Positions 10,784 through 64,000 of a stretch of DNA of 64,000 nucleotides are shown one piece after another (position 1 is the first letter of the stretch; each line of letters starts with the position of its first letter). The stretch comes from Eubacteriales bacterium (GTDB lineage Bacteria > Bacillota > Clostridia > Oscillospirales > CAG-272). Location of the stretch: the NCBI GenBank assembly GCA_045651985.1, contig JAZRTK010000026.1, positions 36,634-100,633 of the forward strand, in the 5' to 3' direction. The notes under the pieces were generated by a model. The model saw nothing but the letters and a program-made list of their open reading frames with translations. It searched no databases and was not told the DNA's origin. The translations under genes were made by a program, and so were the position numbers.

Positions 10784-10819
10784 GCTCCGACGGAATCAAT
10801 CCGTCGGAGCTTTTGCTTT
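10784..10819 (+). terminator. intrinsic terminator closing the seven-gene operon
   Basis: GCTCCGACGG-aatcaat-CCGTCGGAGC followed by TTTTGCTTT. It overlaps the last codons of the convergent transposase ORF. Confidence 0.7.
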
Positions 10820-12430
10820 GATTTTGAAATGGCCTGCTTTGATGTAGGCGAGGTCCTCATCGGAAATTCGGTTTTTGCCGTCGCTCTCGAGCAATCGGTA
10901 AATAATTGCGTTAATGTCCGGGTGCTTCAGCAGCATCGAGATCACAGACCAGTTGGACAGCTTTCTGTAACCCTTGAGCCCGCACTCCTTACATATCTCA
11001 TGGAACTTTGTTTTCGGAATGCTCAGAAGATACTCGCGCTTGTTAAACGTCTTAAATCCGTCCTCCTCGTTGAACTTGAAAAATTTGTTTTCCGTTGCTA
11101 TTCTCGCCGCCTTTGTCTCTGCTTTGAGGATGGAAACGTACTTGCCTGTGGTCTTTGAAAGATCCACTGTCTGATTTTCAACGTCCAACGTGGTGTAGTT
11201 GACTTTCAGCTTCAGAAGTTCCTCGAAGATCATTTCTGCGTCCTTGAATGAAGTAGGTCTGCCGCTGTGATCAACCGCCCAATTCTTCACGAAAGTGAAA
11301 AATCCCACGTAATCCTGCAGATATTTCGTGCTTACATTGGTCTTATCCTTGTAAATCACGTCCTTGAGGTCTTTGTGGAGCTCGTTGACCCTTGCGAGGC
11401 TGAGCCCGTTAGACTTCTTTAGAGCGCAAAATTCGGCGTATGAGAGCTCGCCTCGATTAACTATTCGCTCTATTGCGCCGTCCTCGTATAACGATTTCAA
11501 TATCCTCTTGTTTTTTGCCGCTGTTTCAGCGGCTTTTTTGGGGTTTGAGGGATCGGGTTTCTCATATCCGTACTTTTTCAATATTTCCTCATAAGTTGAG
11601 GGCCTGATATAATGGGGAATATTGAAAAGACTGCTGTATTCCTCGTATGTACTGTTTCCGTCGCTGCATAAGAATGATGGATTTTCAAAATGCTCCTCGA
11701 ACAATTCAATGAACTGCTCTGTTGTCATTTTTCCAAGCCCGCTGACTTTACATACACAATAACCTCTGTTATCGATAGCTGTTATGATTGTTGCAAACTC
11801 GGGACCCATAACGCCGAGCTTTGACGGCGACAAGCCATATCGAGGAGTTCTTATCTCGCCCTTCAAAGTGCTCGTGAGATTGCGACTTCCTTTCTGAGAC
11901 TCCCGAACAAAGGTCTCGTCTACCTGAATAACACCTGTAAGCTTTGGCATAGGAACGGACGCCATTGCGTGCATCAGCTTCAATCGCCATAGCCATACGG
12001 TCTTGGGGTCAATTTCATCACAACCGTAGTCTTTTTTCAGAATGTTAACGGTGCTTTGAATTGAGATGTTGTTCAATAGAGTTTCCAACACCTTTACCCA
12101 AATGTCCCAATGCCAGCGAGTTTTCTCAAGCATCGTGCCGCTGAACAGGGAATATTCGTGCTCACAGTCCTTACATTTGTATTTCTGTATTCCTGTGGAC
12201 CGCTTTCCGTTCTTAACCACGTTCTCCGAGCCACAAGCTGGACAGACCGAGTTGATGCCGAGCTTTTCAAGATGAAGCTGATGATCAAGTGTTATGAGCT
12301 TCCTCATTTCCTTGTCAAAACTGCTTTTTGTTCGGTCGGAATATTCTTCTACAAGCTCCTTGAATTCGGCGTAAGACAGTCTGTTGAGTATGTCGGATAA
12401 TTTCTCCTTAGTTGGTTTTGTTATTGCCAT
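10796..12430 (-). CDS. IS1595-family (ISXO2-like) DDE transposase with extended C-terminus
   Basis: N-terminal Zn-ribbon (CPACGS...KCKDCEH) and VIQVDETFVRESQKG DDE-type motif. Start moved to ATG 12430 (MAITKPTKEK), which has GGAGG 8 nt upstream. Confidence 0.75.
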   Translation of the reverse strand: MAITKPTKEKLSDILNRLSYAEFKELVEEYSDRTKSSFDKEMRKLITLDHQLHLEKLGINSVCPACGSENVVKNGKRSTGIQKYKCKDCEHEYSLFSGTMLEKTRWHWDIWVKVLETLLNNISIQSTVNILKKDYGCDEIDPKTVWLWRLKLMHAMASVPMPKLTGVIQVDETFVRESQKGSRNLTSTLKGEIRTPRYGLSPSKLGVMGPEFATIITAIDNRGYCVCKVSGLGKMTTEQFIELFEEHFENPSFLCSDGNSTYEEYSSLFNIPHYIRPSTYEEILKKYGYEKPDPSNPKKAAETAAKNKRILKSLYEDGAIERIVNRGELSYAEFCALKKSNGLSLARVNELHKDLKDVIYKDKTNVSTKYLQDYVGFFTFVKNWAVDHSGRPTSFKDAEMIFEELLKLKVNYTTLDVENQTVDLSKTTGKYVSILKAETKAARIATENKFFKFNEEDGFKTFNKREYLLSIPKTKFHEICKECGLKGYRKLSNWSVISMLLKHPDINAIIYRLLESDGKNRISDEDLAYIKAGHFKIKAKAPTD

Positions 12431-12785
12431 TTCTTTACCTCCAAATGATTTCTGTACCCTCGCTATAAGTATGACTGAAACAGCGTCAGACCAACCTGAA
12501 GCTATGGGCAGTGTTGCCTCAATTTTCAACCGCGAGAGGGTACTTTTTCATCTGAAATTTTGTTATCGTTTCTCCGCAAACTATGCGAAAATCACATCTT
12601 CGAAATTACAGTTTTGTTTCGTTTTGGGGCCGTTTTTCCCCAAAATCAATTATTCCGGCCTTATTTTATCATATTTTTGAGATTTTTTCTATTCAAAAGT
12701 GTTTTTTGCCGCGATTTGTGCAACTTGTACAAACATTTATAGCCATCAGTCAATTCTTGGAATATATAAGAAGTGAAAAACAATC

Positions 12786-12833: not shown

Positions 12834-14246
12834 ATGACAACAACGGAGACGAACATGGAAAATTCTTCAACTAATTACTCATATATTGAAGGAATTGTTT
12901 ACTCAAAACAATTCCGTAATTTGCAGGATAAGACACAGCTGTTTTATTCAGCTCCCAAAAGACAAGTTAGGACGAGATTAACACACACAATAGAGGTAAA
13001 GATTATAGCACATGATATAGGTCAGCAAATCAACAAAAAAATGGGTACAGAGTTGATCGACTTAAATTTAGTGGAAGCTATCGCCTTAGCACATGATATA
13101 GGGCACACTCCCTTCGGGCATGTTGGCGAAAGAACTATAAATGATATTGTTTCAAAAAAAGATAATTTGGGCGGATTAACTAATGCTAACGGCACTTCTC
13201 AAATTAGATTTAAGCATAATGTTAACTCTATGAGAATTCTCGAAGAATTGAATATTCAAGACTGGAGAATTATTGATGGCGCATTGTGTCATACGAGAAT
13301 TTTTTATAAGAACGATAAAAATTCATCTTCTAAAAATCCTTATAACCCATTTGAGGTAAGCCCTTCTAAAATAGCAAAATTTATATACAATGAACATGGC
13401 ATTCTGTTTAACGCCCCGACGCAAGGAAAGGTGTATAGCTTAACCTTGGAAGGGCAAATTGTATCTATTGCTGATGAAGTTGCACAAAGAATAGCAGATA
13501 TAAGCGATGGCTTGGAATCTAGATATTTTGAAAAAATCAAAAGTATTCTTTCAACGAAAAAAGAAATACATACGCGTGCTGAATTGGAACAATTTATCCG
13601 CGAAATGCTTATCAAAGATGTTGTTGACAGCACTACTGAAAACATAAAAGCACAGCCTCAAAATTTTAAAAGTAATTCTGGTATTAGTCACGCTGTATAC
13701 TATCAAGAAGTAGTTGGATTTTCAGAAAGCATGAAAGCCAAAAATGATGAATTAGAAGAATACATAAAAATCATAATGGCTCAAAGCGAAAGCGTCAGGG
13801 AGTCTGACAGTCGTTCGAGATATATTATTCGTCAATTGTACAAAGCATATTTAAATGATATAACTTTGCTGCCGGATGACTTTATCGATGATTATTTTGG
13901 TAAAATAATTAACAAACAAATCTTTTTAAATGCTATTAGCACACTCCGTGGCGCATCGCGTAAAAACAAATCAAATCAAGATTTACATAAAACACTTGAA
14001 GTTCTTGATGAGATTCAAAAGCAAAGATGGAGAATCGATAAGGGCGATTTACCACAAAAGACAGTTGCTATTAGAATTGATTTGGTGAGAAGTTATTTTG
14101 AAATTTTGATAAAAAATCATCGTACTAATAACATGCCTTGCTTAAATGATCTATTTGACGAATATATTCTTAAAATTGGTTTTTACATAGCAGGTTTAAC
14201 AAACACGGAAGCTTTTACTACATACAACCGAATTTATGGACATTAA
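12834..14246 (+). CDS. dGTP triphosphohydrolase-like HD-domain protein
   Basis: RTRLTHTIEVKIIAHDIG and ALAHDIGHTPFGHVGE are the hallmark dGTPase/Dgt-family HD motifs. The gene is very AT-rich. Confidence 0.8.
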   Translation: MTTTETNMENSSTNYSYIEGIVYSKQFRNLQDKTQLFYSAPKRQVRTRLTHTIEVKIIAHDIGQQINKKMGTELIDLNLVEAIALAHDIGHTPFGHVGERTINDIVSKKDNLGGLTNANGTSQIRFKHNVNSMRILEELNIQDWRIIDGALCHTRIFYKNDKNSSSKNPYNPFEVSPSKIAKFIYNEHGILFNAPTQGKVYSLTLEGQIVSIADEVAQRIADISDGLESRYFEKIKSILSTKKEIHTRAELEQFIREMLIKDVVDSTTENIKAQPQNFKSNSGISHAVYYQEVVGFSESMKAKNDELEEYIKIIMAQSESVRESDSRSRYIIRQLYKAYLNDITLLPDDFIDDYFGKIINKQIFLNAISTLRGASRKNKSNQDLHKTLEVLDEIQKQRWRIDKGDLPQKTVAIRIDLVRSYFEILIKNHRTNNMPCLNDLFDEYILKIGFYIAGLTNTEAFTTYNRIYGH

Positions 14247-14451: not shown

Positions 14452-14523
14452 TAAAAGTATTGCGGAGTTCAAATCCCGTGAGTACTTTTACGAAAATATC
14501 TTTTTTATAGCCAATAGACAAAA

Positions 14524-14558
14524 AAGAACAGACTCCCATTTGAGAGTCTGTTCTTTTT
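14524..14558. terminator. bidirectional intrinsic terminator
   Basis: AGAACAGACTC-ccatttga-GAGTCTGTTCT with an A-run before and a T-run after. Confidence 0.7.
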
Positions 14559-14750
14559 TCGTCGAGGACGGTTTTCATCCATGACCGACGGAGGAGGTCA
14601 TGGGCTTTGAGCCTGAGCGCCGCCGGTGGCGGAAAAAGCGAGGGTGAAAAGGGAGAAAATAAGGAGCGTTGGGCGTGCGACTTGCGCCGCGCTCAACGCG
14701 ACTATATTTTCGACAGGGCAATGAAAAATCCCATCCCCGCAACCAAAAAG

Positions 14751-14780
14751 AAAAGACACCCGAACGGGTGTCTTTTCTTT
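14751..14780. terminator. hairpin terminator, copy 1 of GACACCC..GGGTGTC
   Basis: AAAAGACACCC-gaac-GGGTGTCTTTT flanked by A- and T-runs. Confidence 0.65.
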
Positions 14781-14910
14781 TAGACCGAAGGTGGACTTTA
14801 TCCATGACCAACGGCGAAGGAACGGGGGGGTGAGCCCATTCGCTCGCAGTGCGGGAAGCAGCGACTCCACCGAGAGGGTCAAACCAAATCAAATTATGAA
14901 ATTACACAAA

Positions 14911-14936
14911 AAATGACACCCGAAGGGTGTCTTTTT
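14911..14936. terminator. hairpin terminator, copy 2 of GACACCC..GGGTGTC
   Basis: GACACCC-gaa-GGGTGTC (14915-14931) with an A-run before and TTTTT after. Confidence 0.65.
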
Positions 14937-15022
14937 CCTTTTTATTTGCCCACACTGTTGTTTTCTTTCGTTTATGGGGTAAAATATATATACATATATA
15001 TTACGAAAAGGAGATCGATACT

Positions 15023-15877
15023 ATGCCTAAATCATCTATCACAACAACCGATTTAACAAATTTTAAGAACCATTTATATAATGAAGAAAAAAGTGCTCTG
15101 ACCATCGAAAAATACCTGCGCGACGTGCGTGCTTTTACGGCATACCTGGACCACAGGCCACTGTCAAAGGAGATCACCGTCGAATGGAAACGGTCACTGG
15201 AAGAAAGGCGGTACAGACCCCGTTCAATAAACTCCATGATCGCAAGTCTGAACAGCTTTCTGATCTTTTTGGGGGCACACGACTGTAAGGTAAAAGCCAT
15301 AAGGATCCAAAAGGCAATATACATGCCCGAAGAAAAGGAGCTGACGAAAACAGAATACAAGCGTTTGCTTTCCTCGGCAAAAAAACAGGAGCGCCTGAGC
15401 CTTATCATGCGCGCCATTTGCGCTACGGGAATAAGGGTTTCCGAGCTGAAATATTTTACGGTGGAGGCGGTCAGAGAGCGGGAGGTCTCGGTCAAATGCA
15501 AAAGCAAGAACCGAACGATAATAATACCGCAAGAGCTGAGTCGCCTTTTGCTGAATTACGCCAAAAAGCAAGGTATCGACAGCGGCGCTATCTTTTTGAC
15601 GCGAGGCGGAAAGCCCCTTGACAGAAGCTATATCTGGGCGCAGATGAAAAAGTGCTGCATAACGGCGCACGTAAGCGCGTCAAAGGTATTCCCACACAAT
15701 TTGCGAAAGCTTTTCGCACGAACTTTTTACGCAATAGAGAAGGACATTGCCAAATTAGCCGACATTCTCGGACACAGCAGCATCGAAACGACGCGAATTT
15801 ATATAATGGCAACGGGTATTGAGCACAGACGTCAAATCGAGAAACTCGGTCTGGTTTTTGCTGATTTTTTTGCTTAG
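15023..15877 (+). CDS. tyrosine recombinase (XerC/D-phage integrase family)
   Basis: Has a core-binding N-domain, ATGIRVSEL (Arg), HNLRKLFA, LGHSSIETTRIY (His..Arg..Tyr). Start moved to ATG 15023 (AAAGGAG 9 nt upstream) rather than the ORF-track start at 14927. Confidence 0.85.
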   Translation: MPKSSITTTDLTNFKNHLYNEEKSALTIEKYLRDVRAFTAYLDHRPLSKEITVEWKRSLEERRYRPRSINSMIASLNSFLIFLGAHDCKVKAIRIQKAIYMPEEKELTKTEYKRLLSSAKKQERLSLIMRAICATGIRVSELKYFTVEAVREREVSVKCKSKNRTIIIPQELSRLLLNYAKKQGIDSGAIFLTRGGKPLDRSYIWAQMKKCCITAHVSASKVFPHNLRKLFARTFYAIEKDIAKLADILGHSSIETTRIYIMATGIEHRRQIEKLGLVFADFFA

Positions 15878-15889
15878 AAAACAAAAAAC

Positions 15890-15911
15890 CCACATAATTC
15901 GCATTATGTGG
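15890..15911. repeat. recombinase-type dyad site, copy 1 (core TCGC)
   Basis: CCACATAAT-TCGC-ATTATGTGG, starting 12 nt after the recombinase stop codon. Confidence 0.75.
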
Positions 15912-15932
15912 AAAATAAAAATAATCGCCTTG

Positions 15933-15952
15933 ACATAATTCGCATTATGTGG
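15933..15952. repeat. recombinase-type dyad site, copy 2 (core TCGC)
   Basis: ACATAAT-TCGC-ATTATGTGG, in direct orientation relative to copy 1. Confidence 0.75.
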
Positions 15953-16008
15953 ATTCAAGGCTTAAATAAAAGCGTACATAAATACCGCTTGGATTTGTAT
16001 TATACACG

Positions 16009-16037
16009 AAAAAGCTCTGTCCGTCAAGGGTTTTTGC
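16009..16037 (-). promoter_or_regulatory. near-consensus promoter inside the putative invertible segment, currently pointing leftward
   Basis: On the minus strand: TTGACG (16037-16032), 17-nt spacer, TATAAT (16014-16009). Confidence 0.65.
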
Positions 16038-16098
16038 AAAAAAACGCAAAAATTTTTACCTTTTTTTCAACTTCATATAAAAGTGCACACAAAAACAA

Positions 16099-16146
16099 AC
16101 CCTCCCTAACATTTTTTTGTTAAAAATAGGTTGGAGGGTATTTTTG
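16099..16146. terminator. long hairpin with T-runs on both strands inside the invertible segment
   Basis: CCCTCC (16100-16105) pairs with GGAGGG (16133-16138). It is followed by TATTTTT on the plus strand and TTTGTTTTT on the minus strand. Confidence 0.5.
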
Positions 16147-16211
16147 TGCGCATTTTTTCTTAGCGTTTTTTCATTTTTTGCTCCGCCGAAAGAAAATAAA
16201 AATCCCAAAAT

Positions 16212-16232
16212 CACATAATGCGAATTATGTGG
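16212..16232. repeat. recombinase-type dyad site, copy 3 (core GCGA, inverted)
   Basis: CACATAAT-GCGA-ATTATGTGG. Its reverse complement matches copy 1 at 21 of 22 positions. Confidence 0.75.
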
Positions 16233-16385
16233 ATATCCGGACGGATGGCACCACTATCGTGCTCTCCGTCAAAAATAATTATTAAATTGTAGCAAACGCT
16301 AAACGGATGGGCGCAGATTTTCTTCGTCGTCCGTAAAAATTTGGGCATTTTGTAGCAAATGCTAATTGGAGGCACACCGTAATTT

Positions 16386-16979
16386 ATGAAAAACGAAGAG
16401 CTTTTTAGAGAAATCTTTACAAAAAACACCATTCGCCTCGTCAGCGAGGGCGGATTTGAAGCGGCGACCACGAGAGCTATTGCGGGGGAACGCAGAGAAA
16501 TAAATAACGTCAGGGTGAACGAAGCGCATATTTACCGCATTTACGGCAAAAAGGAGCATTTATTCGCCGACGTCTTCTCTATGCTTGACTGTGAGCTTCT
16601 CGCCGCCGTGGGAGAGGCTTTGGACGAATTCTCCAATGAGACCGACAAGAAAAGGCAGTGGGAAATCCTCTTTTACAAGCTTTGGGACTTCCTTTTGACC
16701 GACGAGACAAAATGCAGATATTATGTCAGATATTACTATTCGGTATATTTTAAGGGCGAGCCCTTGAGAGTGCACAACGCAAAATTCAGAGATTTTGTTT
16801 GCGATCTGATGCCATATTTCGCCGAAAATGCCGACGTTTGCACCATTTTGCAGCACGTGGTTACAGTCGTTCTAAGCTTTGCCATCTGCGCTTATAACGG
16901 AACGCTCCCCAACGACGATCAAAACATTTTCCACGTTTTCAACGTCGTCTATTCATCTATCTCACCATATTTAAGATAA
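16386..16979 (+). CDS. TetR/AcrR-family transcriptional regulator
   Basis: N-terminal HTH pattern (FEAATTRAIAGE...EAHIYRIYGKKEHLF) with a helical C-terminal domain. GGAGG lies upstream. Confidence 0.8.
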   Translation: MKNEELFREIFTKNTIRLVSEGGFEAATTRAIAGERREINNVRVNEAHIYRIYGKKEHLFADVFSMLDCELLAAVGEALDEFSNETDKKRQWEILFYKLWDFLLTDETKCRYYVRYYYSVYFKGEPLRVHNAKFRDFVCDLMPYFAENADVCTILQHVVTVVLSFAICAYNGTLPNDDQNIFHVFNVVYSSISPYLR

Positions 16980-16993
16980 GCTCGGAGGTCAGC

Positions 16994-17161
16994 ATGAGAG
17001 AAAAAATTCGAAAACTCAAAATAGTTATTACAGTTTTTACCGTTCTGATCGCCATTTGCCTTTTGGCTCTTGTCTGCGTTCTCATTTTCGGCAACAACGG
17101 ACCCGTCATCGGTTCCGCTGTTGTATACGACAACGTGATCAATATTCCGGGCGGCAAATAA
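16994..17161 (+). CDS. 55-aa small membrane protein (below ORF-track cutoff)
   Basis: GGAGG lies 6 nt upstream of ATG 16994. MREKIRKLKIVITVFTVLIAICLLALVCVLIFG resembles the N-terminus of the 17793 gene product. Confidence 0.4.
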   Translation: MREKIRKLKIVITVFTVLIAICLLALVCVLIFGNNGPVIGSAVVYDNVINIPGGK

Positions 17162-17213
17162 ATTTGCTGTCGCATTTTCGTTTGGGTTATTGAAAAAGGA
17201 GGTCTAAAAACAA

Positions 17214-17732
17214 ATGAATCAAAAGAACAGGATCGAGCAGGGCTTTACACTCTGCTTGGTCTTAGCTATCATTCTCGCTATTTTGCTATATGTTTTGGCA
17301 TTTATGCTGTTTTACACCATAGAGCCTGTCAGCATAAACCTCAACGGCGGAAAACCCGTGATCGAAGATAACGAATATCTGTTTGAGCCGGGCATGACGG
17401 TCGAAAAGCCCTTTTACATAGGAAACGAGGGCTCCTGGGACGTTTATTATAAAATTTATTTGAACAACGTTTCGGGCGAATTTGCAGACCTGATCGAAAT
17501 TACGATCCTCAACGGAAAGACAGTCCTGTATGAGGGAACGGCTCAAAGCTTGACACGCGATCGAGTTTCGGTAGTCGACGACATTCTTCTCTCGGGCGAC
17601 CGACGACATCTTACCATTCGATTCCACCTGCCCGACACCGCGGAGATTTTGGAGGAAAACGGAAATCTGAAATTCGACTTTTGCGCCGATGCAGTCCAGA
17701 TCCAGAACAATTCCAACAAGAATTTTGAATAA
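17214..17732 (+). CDS. small TasA/camelysin-like secreted protein (SipW-type signal anchor)
   Basis: N-terminal hydrophobic segment, then LNGGKPVIEDNEYLFEPGMTVEKPFYIGNEG. It is a paralog of the 18760 gene and sits in the cluster with SipW. Confidence 0.65.
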   Translation: MNQKNRIEQGFTLCLVLAIILAILLYVLAFMLFYTIEPVSINLNGGKPVIEDNEYLFEPGMTVEKPFYIGNEGSWDVYYKIYLNNVSGEFADLIEITILNGKTVLYEGTAQSLTRDRVSVVDDILLSGDRRHLTIRFHLPDTAEILEENGNLKFDFCADAVQIQNNSNKNFE

Positions 17733-17792
17733 CCGGATCTTCGCTCTCCATTTACACGTATTTAAGACAAATCAAGCTTCGGAGGTCGATAC

Positions 17793-18770
17793 ATGAGTAA
17801 AAGACTTCAAAAAATAAAGATCGTTATATTTGTTTTTTCCATTCTCCTTGCGCTCAGCCTTGCATCTCTTGCGGGAATTCTCCTTTTCGGGCGCGCTGAG
17901 CTGTCCGTTGACTCCGATTCGGTTACCGACAATTACATAAAGCCCACAGTCAACGCAAACGGTACTATCACAACAAAAAGCCAATGCCTCGCGTCACCCG
18001 TTATGCTCAGTACACCTCTTTTAACCGCTGATCTTTCTCGTGGCGTCCCTTTAACGGCTTCTCAAAAGACCGTCATCGAGTCGGATAGTACGAAGGATAC
18101 CGTTATACGCATATACAAAAGACACGCTCAGGACAGCACCCCGTTCCGCTTGTTCAATATGTTTCCCGGCGACAGCCACACAAGATCTTATTTTGTTGAG
18201 GTGTCCCACAAAGGAACCGTTACGGTCCGTTTCCGCGCAAATATTCTTCAGGGCAGTGAAAAGCTGGCTGAGGTGCTGAAATGCAAGATCGTGATACGAG
18301 GCGAAAACAAGCCTCTGTTTGACGGTCTTATGCGTGATATGCCGAGTAGTCTCAAACATCGCGTTTCCGCTTTGTTTAACAAAACCACCGAGTTGGTCTA
18401 CGATGTCACGGTCTATCTTGATACGAGCGTAGGCAATGAGTATATGGACAAAGCATTGGCTGCAGATTTCTGCTGGTGGGTCTGTGACAGCGGCAGCGAC
18501 CCTTATCCCCCTTCAACAGACCCCCTTGACACCAATACCGCCGATCCCGATGATTCTACGTCTTCCGACGTGACCGCCGATCCGACAGACACTACCGACT
18601 CCGATCCCGATGACGGCGAGCTCGTCTCTCCCGAAACGGGCGTAAACGTGCATTTTTGTATCTGGTTTTGGATCGCAATGATATCAATTTTTATTAACTT
18701 CATCCTTCTCAGACCGGGACGGTGTGCAAAAAACGGCGAACAGGAGGATAAGACGACAAATGACAAATAA
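17793..18770 (+). CDS. TasA/camelysin-like protein with acidic S/T/D/P stalk and (S/P)PXTG-type cell-wall sorting signal
   Basis: FNMFPGDSHTRSYFVEVSHKG core. SPETG (nt 18627-18641) is followed by a hydrophobic helix and the basic tail RPGRCAK. Confidence 0.7.
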   Translation: MSKRLQKIKIVIFVFSILLALSLASLAGILLFGRAELSVDSDSVTDNYIKPTVNANGTITTKSQCLASPVMLSTPLLTADLSRGVPLTASQKTVIESDSTKDTVIRIYKRHAQDSTPFRLFNMFPGDSHTRSYFVEVSHKGTVTVRFRANILQGSEKLAEVLKCKIVIRGENKPLFDGLMRDMPSSLKHRVSALFNKTTELVYDVTVYLDTSVGNEYMDKALAADFCWWVCDSGSDPYPPSTDPLDTNTADPDDSTSSDVTADPTDTTDSDPDDGELVSPETGVNVHFCIWFWIAMISIFINFILLRPGRCAKNGEQEDKTTNDK

Positions 18771-19308
18771 GACAGTTACCGAACGCCAAGTGAGGATAAG
18801 TATCCTTATGGTTGTGCTTCTTGCCATCGCTCTGTGCGTGACCACCTACGCGTTGTTCTATGCCACCGTGTCCGTAACGGGAAACTTTTTCGGGACCGGC
18901 TACGTGAGCATCGACCTCAACGGAGGTAAGCCTATTATTGAAGCACACGAGTATTTGTTTGAGCCCGGCATGACCGTTGAAAAACCCTTTTACGTGCAAA
19001 GCGACAGTTCGTGGGCGGTGTACTTCAAGATCTATTTTGATAAGGTTGAAGGAGGTCTCGCCGACGTTCTGGAGATCACCGTTCTTGACGGAGACAAGGT
19101 CTTATACCGGGGAACGGCAGCCCGCTTGACACGGCAAACCGTGTCGGCTGCCGACGATGTTCTCCATCCGGGAGAACGAAAGGATCTCACCATTCGTTTC
19201 CATATGCCCAAAACCACGGGTAATTCGGCAAAAAACATGAGTCTTGCTTTTGATTTCTGTGCCGATGCCGTCCAGATGAAAAACAATCCAAACAGAGAAT
19301 TTGAATAA
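18760..19308 (+). CDS. small TasA/camelysin-like secreted protein, paralog of 17214
   Basis: Start moved to ATG 18760 (AGGAGGA upstream). TTYALFYATVS is signal-like, and LNGGKPIIEAHEYLFEPGMTVEKPFYVQSD matches the paralog. Confidence 0.7.
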   Translation: MTNKTVTERQVRISILMVVLLAIALCVTTYALFYATVSVTGNFFGTGYVSIDLNGGKPIIEAHEYLFEPGMTVEKPFYVQSDSSWAVYFKIYFDKVEGGLADVLEITVLDGDKVLYRGTAARLTRQTVSAADDVLHPGERKDLTIRFHMPKTTGNSAKNMSLAFDFCADAVQMKNNPNREFE

Positions 19309-19325
19309 CAGGAAGGAAATATGAA

Positions 19326-20015
19326 ATGAGGAAGGCATTGAAAATAACTTCTGCCGTTCTGGTATGGGTCCTCGTTGCCGTGACAGTGGGCATAATGATC
19401 TTCACCGTAATATCGGTAAACACCCTTGACCGCTCAAACAGAAGCATTTTCGGATACAAATTCTTTATCGTCCGCTCCGACTCCATGAGCGCCACCGATT
19501 TCAAGGCGGGAGACATCATATTCGTAAAGAATTGTGACCCCGCGACACTCAAGGTAGGCGATATTATCGCATTTACCTCGCAGAATTCCCACAATTTCGG
19601 CGAAACCGTCACCCATAAAATCAGAGAAAAAACCACCGATGCGGACGGAAATCCCGCATTCGTTACATACGGAACGACCACCGATGAAAATGACGAATCG
19701 GCGGTCACTTATCCGTACGTACTCGGAAAATATACGGGCAAGATACCGAACGTGGGCTCGTTTTTTCAGTTTATCAAGACGACGCCCGGTTACATTCTCT
19801 GTATTCTCGTTCCCTTTCTTCTGCTTATCCTTTATCAGGGCATCAACTGTATCAGGCTGTTCAGAAGATACAAAAAAGAACAGATGCAGGAGATCATATC
19901 CGAGCGTGAAAAAATCGAAGAGGAACGCAGACAGTCCGCAGAAATGATGAAAGAGCTGCAAGAGCTCAAAGCCCAGCTTGCCGAAAAGGAAGGCGCGGGC
20001 ACTCCTAAAGAATAA
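19326..20015 (+). CDS. sipW: signal peptidase I, SipW (ER/archaeal) type
   Basis: N-terminal TM, catalytic-Ser motif IVRSDSMSAT, His motif ETVTHKI, a second TM and a charged coiled C-terminal tail. Confidence 0.85.
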   Translation: MRKALKITSAVLVWVLVAVTVGIMIFTVISVNTLDRSNRSIFGYKFFIVRSDSMSATDFKAGDIIFVKNCDPATLKVGDIIAFTSQNSHNFGETVTHKIREKTTDADGNPAFVTYGTTTDENDESAVTYPYVLGKYTGKIPNVGSFFQFIKTTPGYILCILVPFLLLILYQGINCIRLFRRYKKEQMQEIISEREKIEEERRQSAEMMKELQELKAQLAEKEGAGTPKE

Positions 20016-20023
20016 AAATCTAA

Positions 20024-20043
20024 ATAAACGGTAAGTGCCGTTT
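20024..20043 (+). terminator. weak hairpin after sipW
   Basis: TAAACGG-taagtg-CCGTTTA followed by an AT-rich tail. The stem is short. Confidence 0.3.
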
Positions 20044-20086
20044 ATCATAATTTTAATAACATTCATAAATAGGAGGTATTAAGAAA

Positions 20087-21439
20087 ATGACGAATGTTAT
20101 AACAACAAAGAAAGCTCTGCTGAGCAGCGCAGTGGCGCTTCTTCTCTGCTTTGCAATGCTCATGGGAACCACGTTTGCGTGGTTTACCGACTCCGCTGCT
20201 TCCGGCAGCAACGTAATTACCGCAGGTAACCTTGACATCGTTGTTGAGTACACACTTGACGGCGAGACATGGAAGACACTTGACGGCGCAAACGATTTGT
20301 TCCAGAAGGGTCTCTGGGAGCCCGGCCATACCGAGGTTGTTGCTCTCCGTATCAAGAACAATGGTACTTTGGCTCTGAAATATGCGGCTAACATGAACAT
20401 TGTTAATGAAAACGTTGGTAAGACCAAGGACGGCGCGGATATCGTTCTCTCCGACATTCTTACTGTTAATTCGATCATTATGGATACAGGAGCAATGGGC
20501 GATGTTCTGCTTGGAGTGGCTTTCAGCGACGAAAGCACATTGCAGTACGAGAACACAGCTTCTTTTAAGAAGGCTAATGTTCTTGGTTCTGATGAAATGC
20601 TTCTCGCAGGCGCGTCAAAGTATCTCATCGTCAAGGTCGACATGGCTGAGACCGTAGGCAACGAAGCTAACCACAACGGTACAAACATTCCTTCCATCAA
20701 CTTTGGTATCAACGTTCTTGCAACTCAGTTTACATACGAGAATGACAGCTTTGGTAAGGATTACGATGAGGATGCGGAGTACCCTGTAGTCGATGCAGCC
20801 GGACTCAAGGAGGCGCTCGCTTCCGGCGTTGAAAATATCGCGCTTTCCGCCGATATCACCGTTAATAAGAATGAGACTGTTACCGTTGCATCCGGTGTGA
20901 ATGCTACTATCAACCTTAACGGTCATACTCTGTCTACTTCTGCTGACAAGAGCGGAAATCAGGAAATGTTCCTGGTCAAGGGCAACCTGACCGTTGAAAA
21001 CGGTAAACTTCAGATGACCGCTCAAAATAACCAGGAATGGAACGCCATGGCAGCAATTTTTGACGTTACCGCCGGCGGCGTCCTGACCATGAAAAATGTT
21101 GAAGCGAGTGTAAGCGGCACGGATATGAACTTTATCGTTCATTTGAACAACTGGGGCTCTGCAACTCTGACGGTCGAGAACTGTGACTTCACTGCTTCTT
21201 ACTGTGGTGTACGTGCCTTTAACAGCGGCTATGACATGAACACTGTTACCATCAAAAACACCGACTTCCACGGCGGAAGAATGTTCTGGGTACATAACTA
21301 CACATCTGAGGGGAAGGACGATTCCACTTTGACTCTGGACATCTACAACAACGGCAACACATCTGATAATGCAAAGCCCGTTCGTTTCGGCTTCAGCAAT
21401 TCTGTTTACTACGATCTTGACGGTAATGTGATCAGCTGA
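20087..21439 (+). CDS. SipW-dependent-signal TasA-like N-domain fused to beta-helix/adhesin-like C-domain
   Basis: MLMGTTFAWFTDS is the SipW-cognate signal hallmark. WEPGHTEVVALRIKNNGTLALKY is camelysin/TasA-like. The C-terminal part has repetitive beta-strand motifs (VTVASGVNATINLNGHTL...). Confidence 0.75.
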   Translation: MTNVITTKKALLSSAVALLLCFAMLMGTTFAWFTDSAASGSNVITAGNLDIVVEYTLDGETWKTLDGANDLFQKGLWEPGHTEVVALRIKNNGTLALKYAANMNIVNENVGKTKDGADIVLSDILTVNSIIMDTGAMGDVLLGVAFSDESTLQYENTASFKKANVLGSDEMLLAGASKYLIVKVDMAETVGNEANHNGTNIPSINFGINVLATQFTYENDSFGKDYDEDAEYPVVDAAGLKEALASGVENIALSADITVNKNETVTVASGVNATINLNGHTLSTSADKSGNQEMFLVKGNLTVENGKLQMTAQNNQEWNAMAAIFDVTAGGVLTMKNVEASVSGTDMNFIVHLNNWGSATLTVENCDFTASYCGVRAFNSGYDMNTVTIKNTDFHGGRMFWVHNYTSEGKDDSTLTLDIYNNGNTSDNAKPVRFGFSNSVYYDLDGNVIS

Positions 21440-21537
21440 TTGTTTCTCTTTTAAGATCAATACTCAGCAAGAAACACACATATCCCGTCAAGGATCATCC
21501 AAACGTATATGGGACACGGGCTACTGCGTAGCTGCGA

Positions 21538-21627
21538 GTGTTTTTCATATATTCTTCCCATCCAACTCTCCTTCGGGGGAGTTGGGCGGCAGTCAATGGG
21601 CATAAGTTCTAAATTTATGCCTTTTGA
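21538..21627. repeat. about 90-nt double-hairpin intergenic element, copy 1
   Basis: GTGTTTTTCATATATTCTTCCC...CAACTC.CC-ttcg-GGGGAGTTGGGCGGC.GTCAATGGGCATAA...TTATGCCTTTTGA. It is near-identical to the copy at 23648. Confidence 0.7.
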
Positions 21628-21745
21628 TTGCTGAAAAAGACAGCAAAAGATCAAACAGGCTCTTATGCGCGTTGGGTCAACGGTCAGCGCATAAGCGGCT
21701 TCAATACTTCCCAACGTTGGCAAATAAAAAAGGAGGTCATGATAA

Positions 21746-23602
21746 ATGACAAACGCAAAAACAACCAAAAAAGCGTTGCTCACATCTGCAGTTGCACTTC
21801 TGCTCTGCTTTGCAATGCTCATGGGAACCACGTTTGCGTGGTTTACCGACAGCTCAGCTTCCGGCAGCAACGTGATCACCGCAGGTAATCTTGACATCGT
21901 TGTTGAGTACACACTTGACGGCGAGACATGGAAGACCCTCGACGGCGCAAACGATCTGTTCTCAAAGGGTCTCTGGGAGCCCGGCCATACCGAGGTCGTT
22001 GCTCTCCGCATAAAGAACAACGGTACTCTGGCTCTGAAATATGCGGCTAACATGAACATTGTTAATGAGACCAAGGGTAAGACCAAGGACGGCGCGGATA
22101 TCGTTCTCTCCGACATCTTGACTGTCACTACTGTTACCCATCAGGTTAACCAGGTTGGAGACATTCTGCTCGACATGGTGTTTGGTGGTAGCCAAAACAC
22201 AGATACCGGTGCTGCTAAAGCATTTAAATCCGGCAATATCCTCGCATCTGACCAAGAACTTCTCGCAGGAGATGCTCACTATGTAATCATCACGGTCGAC
22301 ATGGCAGAGACTGTTGGCAACGAAGCTAACCACAACGGTACAAACATTCCTTCCATTAACTTCGGCATCAACGTTCTTGCAACTCAGTTTACATACGAGA
22401 ATGACAGCTTTGGCAACAAGTACGATAAGGATTCCGAATACCCTGCAACAAACACAGCCGACGTTTGGGATGGCTCCATTGATATTTCTTGGTACACGGA
22501 TAACCCCGATGCAACAGAATTTTCACTTAATACCGCAAGCGCGGTTGCTGGACTTGCCGCTCTGGTAGACGGCTCGGCAGTTGTTCCTGCAGACGTTTCA
22601 TCGGAAATAACCCTTCCTGTAACCTTTGATGGAAAGACTGTAATATTGAAAAATGACGTAGACCTTGCCGGCATCTTATTCAACCCGATCGGTTCTTACA
22701 GAAAAGAGGTTGCATTCACCGGTACATTCGACGGCAACGGCAAAACCATAAAGAATCTGAGCCAGAACACATGGGAGCTGAACACAGGCTATTATTACGA
22801 TGATCTTGGTTTGGGACTGTTTGGCTTGGTTGAAGATGCCCACATCAAGAATCTTAATATTGACAGCGCATCAATTTCCGGAGAATCCGGTATGGTCGGT
22901 ATCGTTGCCGCAGCGGCTTACGGCGACTGTGTTTTTGAAAACATAAAGGTAACAAATTCCCAGGCTGCAGATTACCAGTATTATGCAGGCGGTATCGTCG
23001 GTTGGGCAAGCGGCGAACAGACGTATAAGGGCATTGTCGTGGATGAGTCTACTGTTATTGGCGGACAGTGGGGCGATTTCGGTAACGCCAACGGAGGTAT
23101 TATCGGCGGCGCAGGCACAAGCGGCACCTATCATTTTGAGGATTGTACCGTTGCCTGCCGTATAGATGCCGTCAACGACATTGTCTCTGCTTATCAGTGG
23201 TATTGCTACCGCAATTGTGGCATGCTTATCGGTAAAGTTGATAGCTATGTTACGGATGAAGTCGTAAACGTTGTTGCAGAAAACGTAACCTGCAAGAATG
23301 TTACCGTTATTTACAACGATTGGGCAAATTACACCTACTGCGAGTTTGCAGGCACCAGCTATCCTTACGTTCGTGTTCAGGCTGGAACCAGTGTAGATGC
23401 TTACAGCAACATTCGTTACGGTCATCCGACCGATGCTAACGGCAATACGGTAGTGGATGATAATCACGTACATAATGACGGTGAAGATCACCATCTTCTT
23501 ATTGCGTTTGACCAGCTCTTCGGCGGTCCCGCAAATCATCGTTATTGCTACTACGGTGTTGCGGAGCATGAAGGCGTAACGGTTGTTTATAACAACAAGT
23601 AA
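21746..23602 (+). CDS. SipW-dependent-signal TasA-like N-domain fused to GLUG-like/beta-helix C-domain
   Basis: The N-terminal ~235 aa are near-identical to the 20087 product except for a variable central stretch. The C-terminal part has GLFGLVEDAHIKNLNI and GGIVGWASG type repeats. Confidence 0.75.
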   Translation: MTNAKTTKKALLTSAVALLLCFAMLMGTTFAWFTDSSASGSNVITAGNLDIVVEYTLDGETWKTLDGANDLFSKGLWEPGHTEVVALRIKNNGTLALKYAANMNIVNETKGKTKDGADIVLSDILTVTTVTHQVNQVGDILLDMVFGGSQNTDTGAAKAFKSGNILASDQELLAGDAHYVIITVDMAETVGNEANHNGTNIPSINFGINVLATQFTYENDSFGNKYDKDSEYPATNTADVWDGSIDISWYTDNPDATEFSLNTASAVAGLAALVDGSAVVPADVSSEITLPVTFDGKTVILKNDVDLAGILFNPIGSYRKEVAFTGTFDGNGKTIKNLSQNTWELNTGYYYDDLGLGLFGLVEDAHIKNLNIDSASISGESGMVGIVAAAAYGDCVFENIKVTNSQAADYQYYAGGIVGWASGEQTYKGIVVDESTVIGGQWGDFGNANGGIIGGAGTSGTYHFEDCTVACRIDAVNDIVSAYQWYCYRNCGMLIGKVDSYVTDEVVNVVAENVTCKNVTVIYNDWANYTYCEFAGTSYPYVRVQAGTSVDAYSNIRYGHPTDANGNTVVDDNHVHNDGEDHHLLIAFDQLFGGPANHRYCYYGVAEHEGVTVVYNNK

Positions 23603-63788: not shown

Positions 63789-64000
63789 GGCGACCGAGCT
63801 AAGCGATCGCGCGGTATGGTGCCGAAAGGTGTTACCGTGAGGAAAGTCCGGGCTTCACAGGGCAGGATAACTGATAACGTCAGCCGGAGGCGACTCCCGG
63901 GAAAGTGCAACAGAAATAAACCGCCAAGGCGACTTGGTAAGGATGGAAAGGCGAGGTAAGAGCTCACCCAAGGGGCGGGTAACCGTTCTTTGCTGTAAAC
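63789..64000 (+). ncRNA. rnpB: RNase P RNA, bacterial type A, 3' end cut by window edge
   Basis: GAGGAAAGTCCGGGC (from 63839), AGTGCAACAGAAA, GGTAAGAGCTCACC and GGGTAACC..GCTGTAAAC match the conserved type-A core in the order seen in E. coli M1 RNA. Confidence 0.85.

Follow-up and report, generated by a model that had tools for sequence, protein, structure and literature searches.

The question raised by this locus is whether the short stretch between a tyrosine recombinase gene and a TetR/SipW/TasA-like gene cluster of a Eubacteriales bacterium (assembly GCA_045651985.1, contig JAZRTK010000026.1) acts as an invertible promoter switch. The window, meaning the whole stretch of 64,000 nucleotides (nt) that was analysed, is numbered from its first letter as position 1, and all coordinates follow this numbering. 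Judged from the window and its relatives, the element is very probably a promoter inverton, a switch that works by site-specific DNA inversion and lies beside an Xer-like recombinase gene, and its flipping would most likely turn a TetR/SipW/TasA-like surface-fibre operon on and off. A promoter inverton had already been proposed in a first-pass annotation made from the letters of the window alone, and the comparative data on inverted site pairs, recombinase linkage, occurrence of both orientations and half-site exchange agree with that proposal.

Three copies of a palindromic site, designated A, B and C, are found in the window (Table 1). The arms of A and C form perfect inverted repeats of 21 nt (100% complementary) and bound the segment as an inverted pair, while site B has the same polarity as A, lies 41 nt further on and differs only at its outermost base. 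A search of the 64 kb with a 20-mer pattern and up to 3 mismatches returned just these three sites, where dinucleotide shuffles expect 0.00; a pattern that allowed any core and up to 2 mismatches found 3 sites against 0.22 expected. The first-pass annotation had described three sites of 20 to 22 base pairs (bp), the right one inverted, with cores reading TCGC, TCGC and GCGA and the first site beginning 12 nt past the recombinase stop codon, and in all these respects its reading stands; the stop codon is a TAG that ends at 15877. It had not foreseen that the extra site would join in alternative inversions, in which C probably recombines with B in place of A. The direct repeat GAAAATAAAAAT at 15911 and 16192 was also considered as a site component and was dismissed as A/T-rich flank.

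Table 1. Features of the candidate switch and of the genes around it, in window coordinates
Feature	Position	Strand	Remarks
Tyrosine recombinase gene, Xer-like, 284 amino acids (aa)	15023..15877	+	Putative invertase; outside the invertible segment
Direction-specific terminator (putative)	15878..15912	-	Site A stem plus U-run from A-rich spacer 15878-15889
Site A	15890-15911		Outer left site, CCACATAATTCGCATTATGTGG; CCACATAAT-TCGC-ATTATGTGG, core 15899-15902
Candidate invertible segment, A x C, core to core	15899..16223		B x C alternative 15940-16223
Site B	15932/15933-15952		Inner left site, (G)ACATAATTCGCATTATGTGG; GACATAAT-TCGC-ATTATGTGG, core 15940-15943
Predicted sigma-70-type promoter TTGACG-17 nt-TATAAT	15999..16027	-	Consensus scan, 11/12 positions; leftward = OFF
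Strong hairpin with T-rich tails on both strands	16085..16158	both	Inside the segment, upstream of the promoter
Site C	16212-16232		Right site, inverted, CACATAATGCGAATTATGTGG; CACATAAT-GCGA-ATTATGTGG, core 16220-16223
Leader, switch to TetR start	16233..16385	+	Two TGTAGCAAAYGCTA boxes, 16288-16301 and 16351-16364
TetR-family regulator	16386..16979	+	First gene 3' of the switch; Pfam TetR_N 23.5 bits (cut-off 24), E 4.8e-5
Putative regulated cluster	16994..23602	+	Surface-fibre genes behind TetR
55-aa membrane peptide	16994-17161	+	
Two paralogous proteins, 172 and 194 aa	17214-17732, 18724-19308	+	
325-aa protein, putative SPETG-type sorting signal	17793-18770	+	Read from translation
SipW-type signal peptidase	19326-20015	+	TIGR02228, 68.9 bits (cut-off 51.85)
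Two TasA/camelysin-like proteins	20087-21439, 21746-23602	+	PF12389; SipW-cognate signal peptide model TIGR04088

The same arrangement recurs in many other genomes. A scan of GTDB, with one genome per species and the pattern ACATAATKCGMATTATGTG, yielded 65 loci, almost all from Oscillospiraceae, Faecousia or other Clostridia among gut metagenome-assembled genomes (MAGs). In 55 of the 65, a recombinase homologue with 44-76% identity ends 4-82 nt before the TCGC site, and the GCGA site comes 180-310 nt after it. One contig set (L numbers denote the loci or contigs compared, and P numbers the recombinase proteins that define contig sets), the P0068 set comprising L081-L090, showed no TCGC/GCGA site yet had a variant core, TTGT/ACAA, on the same arms (L081 2365-2385 and 2670-2690); metagenomes were therefore scanned for two copies of ACATAAT-NNNN-ATTATGT, 250-280 nt apart and with free cores. 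At least 120 loci were recovered. The core TCTC/GAGA was likewise found on the same arms in L221-L224 (P0049 set), and both of these core-variant sets retain the internal hairpin and promoter. Among the metagenome loci listed, the two cores are exact reverse complements in 119 of 120 site pairs, for a chance match of 1 in 256, and at least 46 distinct cores occur; direct-repeat pairs and palindromic cores were both absent from these 120. A recombinase homologue abuts the site in all 113 testable loci of this list, the other 7 meeting a contig end, and no locus was found to have a site on the 5' side of that gene. In the position profile, the arms reach further outward and read AC-n-ACATAAT / ATTATGT-n-GT. 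Conserved arms, a variable but matched inverted core and a constant recombinase fit a tyrosine-recombinase site, following the logic of lox, FRT and dif, and not an operator.

This bears directly on the possibility that the palindromes are operators of a DNA-binding regulator such as the adjacent TetR, with no recombination at all, which the first-pass annotation had named among the cases that would overturn its proposal. Each site is indeed a dyad of the size typical for the operator of a dimeric regulator, weak promoter-like matches lie beside A and B or overlap them, and the TetR gene is 150 nt away. However, the sites stand beside the recombinase in 27 loci without TetR, and it is a different box, TGTAGCAAAYGCTA (also given as TGTAGCAAnnGCTA), that follows the regulator: 11 of the 12 loci that encode a close TetR ortholog have it, and the 27 without TetR all lack it. 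Neither the constant inversion of asymmetric cores nor a flipped segment with half-site exchange is predicted by operators, and the chance that this explanation is correct is considered negligible. The leader boxes, by comparison, are probably the TetR operators, so that TetR with its own boxes would add a second, conventional layer of control. Before each leader box stand a GACGGA...TCCGTC hairpin and an A-run, the whole forming a repeat unit of about 63 nt. A search against Rfam matched nothing at the switch or close to it.

Both orientations of the segment occur between unchanged flanks, within the family and among close homologues of the window. L051 and L027 have flanks that are 94-95% identical and a block, bounded by the sites, that is 99.3% identical in reverse complement; the flanks of L010 and L049 are colinear around an inverted inter-site block with 96.7% identity; the inverted block of L022 relative to L027 takes in the extra site; and that of L060 relative to L037 is 80.6% identical in reverse complement. 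Positions 15875-16234 of the window match L068 in reverse complement with 80% identity and colinear flanks, with L069 and L066 being similar, whereas L067 is colinear throughout. The recombinases of these four relatives (L066-L069) are 80-82% identical to that of the window, and L066 differs from the window as inversion between B and C predicts. The extra site also changes sides, as it should if inversion takes place at the outer sites (L022 versus L027, L073 versus L076). For the window, the junctions predicted after flipping are CACATAATTCGCATTATGTGATTTTGGGATTTTTATTTTC on the left for A x C, and on the right AAGCCTTGAATCCACATAATGCGAATTATGTGGATATCCGG for B x C and GATTATTTTTATTTTCCACATAATGCGAATTATGTGGATATCC for A x C.

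Three sets of contigs from different samples, the proteins being 100% identical within each set, contain both orientations, and two of them (P0007 and P0049) show the half-site exchange expected of recombination. Contigs of the P0007 set, whose recombinase is 70% identical to that of the window, show four configurations: 1+2 sites OFF (L072, L075, L077, L079), 1+2 sites ON (L073, L074), 2+1 sites OFF (L076) and 1+1 sites OFF (L071, L078). In the OFF allele, A reads CACATAAT-TCGC-ATTATGTG and C1 reads AACATAAT-GCGA-ATTATGTT, and in the ON allele these turn into CACATAATTCGCATTATGTT and CACATAATGCGAATTATGTT; the differences at the outermost bases thus swap halves, which indicates a reciprocal crossover inside the site. 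L076 is the ON allele inverted between the outer sites, with the spacer and inner site in reverse complement on the other side, while L071 and L078 look like the product of a deletion from L072 between the direct-repeat sites C1 and C2. The P0049 set, with its third core, shows ON and OFF with the same half-site exchange, and the P0058 set contains 2+2 sites ON against 1+1 sites OFF. Repeats of about 20 bp are shorter than the k-mers commonly used in such assemblies, so the orientation of a contig should reflect real molecules. Four contigs (L070, L080, L087, L088) end at or within about 50 nt of a site, which fits assembly breaks from mixed orientations or from repeated modules in the sample. 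In L069, the site 339-358 past the recombinase stop has the palindromic core TCGA, where L068, with an identical recombinase, has GCGA; the two also distribute their sites differently (1+3 in L068, 2+2 in L069) and are of low coverage (L069 3x). The TCGA core may have arisen by mutation, by error or by an aberrant exchange such as a misaligned recombination, and is treated as a single-base variant.

One to three tandem sites may stand on either side of a switch, the spacing of extra sites in relatives being 41-53 nt, and both inner and outer sites are used. With strict matching, the extra tandem site appeared always to lie on the promoter-facing side (10 of 10), and this rule was abandoned when L066 and L010 proved to be counter-examples with mismatches allowed. 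As sequenced, the window is read as OFF, in a 2+1 configuration of the same type as L076.

Some MAGs hold several such loci: five in JAZNBB (L018/L026/L037/L039/L046), three in CAZCRV (L036/L047/L048) and two in JAFVTI (L001/L011). Within one MAG, paralogous modules of recombinase and switch, about 1.2 kb long and with sharp homology borders, stand before unrelated genes, the homology running from 65-80 nt before the recombinase start to 30-50 nt past the distal site. The presence of such modules before different genes indicates that the cassette has duplicated or moved. In the group with leucine-rich repeat (LRR) and collagen-like proteins, conservation extends as far as the lipoprotein gene under control, into its ribosome-binding site and MKK start. 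The modules within these MAGs share one core, TCGC. The multiple copies per genome, the sharp-bordered modules and the recombination of direct-repeat sites suggested by L071 and L078 would also suit another explanation, in which the sites are terminal inverted repeats resembling those of miniature inverted-repeat transposable elements, or attachment sites of a mobile recombinase cassette, so that insertion, excision or movement of the cassette is the principal reaction and inversion is incidental. Such an element should not behave as the family does: the short segment is never found away from the recombinase gene (113 of the 113 testable metagenome loci listed), no locus has a site on the upstream side of that gene, and the content of the segment is conserved as a terminator and an outward-facing promoter. 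Alleles within a species differ by inversion in place and not by presence or absence, empty sites and target duplications not having been searched for systematically. An element of this kind is regarded as very improbable.

The segment between the sites carries a predicted promoter on the minus strand, with its -35 element at 16027-16022, its -10 element at 16004-15999 and a likely start near 15992. The first-pass annotation had given the sequence and spacer of this promoter correctly but placed it 10 nt too far to the right, at 16037-16009 instead of 16027-15999, and its start at about 16002 shifts in the same manner. Its further observations, that a hairpin with a T-run lies inside the segment and that no consensus-grade promoter is present between site C and the TetR start, are borne out: folding energy locates the hairpin at 16085-16151, and a scan of 16233-16385 found no sigma-70-like promoter on the plus strand. 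The hairpin folds with -25.1 kcal/mol on the plus and -32.0 kcal/mol on the minus strand (z -4.6 and -6.5), none of 200 shuffles folding equally well, and comparable hairpins occur in L066-L069, L071-L079 and L081. It may be considered a putative bidirectional terminator that would insulate the operon from recombinase read-through in either orientation. Of 45 related switches, about 35 have a near-consensus promoter with a 17-nt spacer. It is situated 35-60 nt from one end, faces outward across the site next to it and takes mirror-image positions in the two orientations. Across species it points away from the recombinase in 23 loci and toward it in 18.

Site A may have a second role. On the minus strand it forms a 10-bp hairpin followed by UUUUUUGUUUU (-11.6 kcal/mol), and a terminator scan gave a match at 15912..15889 on this strand, with the tail TTTTTTGTTT. 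Beyond the outer edge of the site nearest the recombinase, an A-rich tract is conserved, with A at 57-69% of positions -10 to -5 over 112 loci; on the plus strand, a T-run is absent 3' of site C. Site A may thus double as a one-way terminator that would shield the recombinase gene from antisense transcription.

A mechanism can be proposed on these grounds. The two palindromic arms of each site, about 9-10 bp each, would most likely bind two monomers of the adjacent recombinase, and the asymmetric 4-bp core would sit in the strand-exchange region and set the polarity of the site. Recombination of A or B (TCGC) with C (GCGA) would flip a segment of 280-325 bp that consists of the terminator hairpin followed by the promoter. 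In the OFF orientation, a leftward transcript from about 15992 would run through B into A and stop at the hairpin and U-run before the recombinase gene. In the ON orientation, the promoter would come to lie on the plus strand at 16095-16123 (A x C) or 16136-16164 (B x C) and would read across site C, which offers no U-run. The transcript would begin near 16130 or 16171, and its leader, about 215-256 nt long, would precede TetR and the SipW/TasA-like genes. As the internal hairpin is expected to stop recombinase read-through either way, expression of the operon would be set by promoter orientation alone.

The recombinase that stands beside the switch belongs to the tyrosine recombinase superfamily, as it has the catalytic domain (PF00589 Phage_integrase, 79.6 bits) and the R-K-H-R-H/W-Y residues, together with a PF02899 SAM_1 domain (31.3 bits). 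Its open reading frame (ORF) is intact, and the motifs GIR(138), KSK(160/162), H225-x-x-R228, H251 and Y260, read from motifs and from an alignment with XerA, are all present. The best match in the PDB is the XerA-like chain 4a8e. Against the NCBIfam equivalog models, the protein scores far below every cut-off (XerA 138 against 220 bits, XerD 107 against 330, XerC 101 against 335). The recombinase is Xer-like in its architecture and nearest structures, though no XerC/XerD/XerA equivalog. Identification as a XerC/XerD/XerA dimer resolvase was rejected on these cut-offs and because such resolvases act at a single dif site, whereas the sites here come in pairs on either side of a promoter, with several loci in one genome; identification as a FimB/FimE-type invertase was rejected with 20.2 bits against a cut-off of 221 for NF007370. 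Its genetic linkage to the sites suggests that it is the invertase of the switch. A look-up of the exact sequence of the window protein gave no record; a protein search returned at least 7957 homologues at E <= 1e-60, many of them on contigs of about 1 kb.

Several observations weigh against the promoter inverton or limit its application to this copy. The window shows one orientation only, OFF, and the tie between recombinase and switch is one of genetic linkage. The nearest relatives with a readable switch share just 80-82% recombinase identity, and a 95%-identical relative (P0001) lies on a 954-bp contig without a switch. Promoter and terminators alike are predicted from consensus or folding energy, the terminator at site A has a weak stem (-11.6 kcal/mol), and a strict promoter definition is satisfied by just 47 of 113 metagenome switches. 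The GTDB loci were gathered by the exact site, so the conservation of the arms is partly built in, unlike core covariation and recombinase linkage. A related explanation accepts the family but holds that this copy is locked or decaying in the OFF state, its operon being silent or under an unrecognised promoter. It would account for the single orientation in the window and for the single site on the right side, where L067 has two; the species is also rare in public data, and no flipped allele could be found. Against decay, A and C are still perfect inverted repeats and B is off at its outermost base only, the recombinase retains an intact ORF with all catalytic motifs, the promoter keeps 11 of 12 consensus positions, and 2+1 is a normal interconvertible state in the P0007 set (L076). 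A locked copy is therefore judged decidedly improbable, and a functional promoter inverton remains the favoured interpretation.

The genes that the switch is predicted to control are listed in Table 1. Syntenic TetR orthologs with 51-76% identity stand behind the switch in L002, L009, L010, L014, L035, L049 and L053, and the SipW/TasA cluster is syntenic there in L002, L010, L014, L053 and others. Several small proteins of the cluster have no family assignment. The 325-aa protein ends in SPETG, a hydrophobic stretch and a basic tail, for which homologues have PPKTG (L055) and PPQTG (L054), and this end looks like a sortase (SPxTG-type) cell-wall sorting signal. Other family members are followed mostly by surface proteins, including BspA-type LRR lipoproteins, collagen-like, cohesin/dockerin and SLH proteins and sortase, of a kind typical of phase variation; a TIR-TPR protein, a metallophosphatase and an AMP-binding enzyme are also found downstream in relatives.

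On the other side of the recombinase, a 470-aa HD / HD_assoc phosphohydrolase is encoded at 12834-14246 (+), and a 577-aa ORF with zinc-finger-like CxxC motifs, a putative transposase of the insertion sequence type, at 10796-12529 (-). The gene upstream of the recombinase is a HAD hydrolase instead in L066 and L067, so this side of the locus is not conserved. Three palindromes at 14520-14941, of a 34-nt family, resemble bidirectional terminators (e.g. AAAAGACACCCGAACGGGTGTCTTTTC) and sit in a stretch of about 780 nt upstream of the recombinase that has short overlapping ORFs only (50-105 aa). The 5' part of a class A bacterial RNase P RNA (145.9 bits) is found at 63791-64000 (+), cut by the window end.

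Taken more broadly, the window may represent a very large family of self-contained phase-variation cassettes of about 1.2 kb in gut Clostridia, so far undescribed, with universal arms and locus-variable cores (at least 46), duplicated before many surface-protein genes, with a site palindrome that serves as a one-way terminator and tandem sites that provide several states. Such a cassette would comprise the recombinase's own promoter, the Xer-like recombinase gene and the terminator-promoter segment between the sites. This wider reading, taken with all its parts, is put forward tentatively, as slightly less probable than its contrary. In this genome, expression of the surface-fibre cluster (16.4-23.6 kb) is probably confined to a subpopulation. 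Little work has addressed the phase variation of TasA/SipW-type fibres and other surface proteins in Oscillospiraceae and Faecousia-like gut Clostridia, which are abundant and for the most part uncultured. A signature made up of ACATAAT-N4-ATTATGT pairs, with inverted cores that match, behind an Xer-like recombinase gene makes such switches findable from sequence alone, and their ON/OFF state should be readable from metagenomes by the same means. The diversity of matched cores is also a ready-made test of crossover-region specificity and a possible source of orthogonal recombination sites; if the core alone separates switches, the family would hold natural orthogonal site variants for one recombinase scaffold.

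Known systems share different parts of this architecture. Shufflons (R64 Rci) likewise have more than two sites per tyrosine recombinase, comparable to the interconvertible states 1+1, 1+2, 2+1, 2+2 and 1+3, but here no coding segments are shuffled and all states reduce to two promoter orientations. The sites of loxP/Cre, FRT/FLP and dif/XerCD also consist of inverted binding arms around a short asymmetric crossover region. In lox-type systems, the crossover region must match between partners although it is itself unrecognised, which is the logic of heterospecific lox variants; this logic is mirrored here by at least 46 natural cores matched within pairs, with a recombinase nearest to Xer proteins. 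Unlike those systems, the visible asymmetric core is 4 bp, and the role is promoter inversion, not dimer resolution or plasmid and phage maintenance.

The Clostridioides difficile Cdi switches (cwpV, flgB and others), served by RecV, are comparable as phase variation in Clostridia by a tyrosine recombinase in the 5' leaders of surface-structure genes. The cwpV and flgB switches act after transcription initiation, through a terminator or Rho, whereas here the promoter itself would be flipped. Cdi7 has an adjoining recombinase gene, but RecV is a remote master recombinase and most Cdi inverted repeats are mutually unrelated (PMC5903667). In the present family, every switch comes with a recombinase gene beside it, and arm conservation extends over thousands of loci.

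The promoter invertons of Bacteroides (capsule and other surface loci; Mpi and Tsr-type recombinases; PhaseFinder catalogues) also form families with a conserved inverted-repeat motif and an internal promoter. Such invertons are many per genome in gut commensals and control surface molecules (PMC11892184). They differ in phylum, recombinase family, repeat motif and promoter type, and here recombinase and switch correspond strictly one to one. A search of the hCom2 inverton catalogue (PMC11892184) did not turn up the inverted-repeat motif, and neither this catalogue nor the DeepInverton paper, so far as searched, gave anything specific to this family. Literature searched for the repeat motif, for TasA-type loci under inverton control and for invertible promoters in Oscillospiraceae gave no description, though bulk inverton catalogues may contain members.

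In function, the likeness is to fimS of Escherichia coli with FimB/FimE, which has an invertible segment of about 300 bp, a sigma-70 promoter, short inverted repeats, one or more adjacent tyrosine recombinase genes and a surface-fibre operon switched ON and OFF. It differs in that here a single recombinase is found where fimS has two, and this one is Xer-like with a SAM_1 N-terminal domain and scores 20 bits against the 221 of the FimB/E model. The sites are palindromes of about 22 bp with a 4-bp core, in contrast to the 9-bp repeats, flanking half-sites and IHF/Lrp sites of fimS, and extra tandem sites allow alternative inversions, no accessory-factor sites having been identified. The switch is thus placed in a new, large and apparently undescribed family within the known fimS-type kind of promoter inverton.

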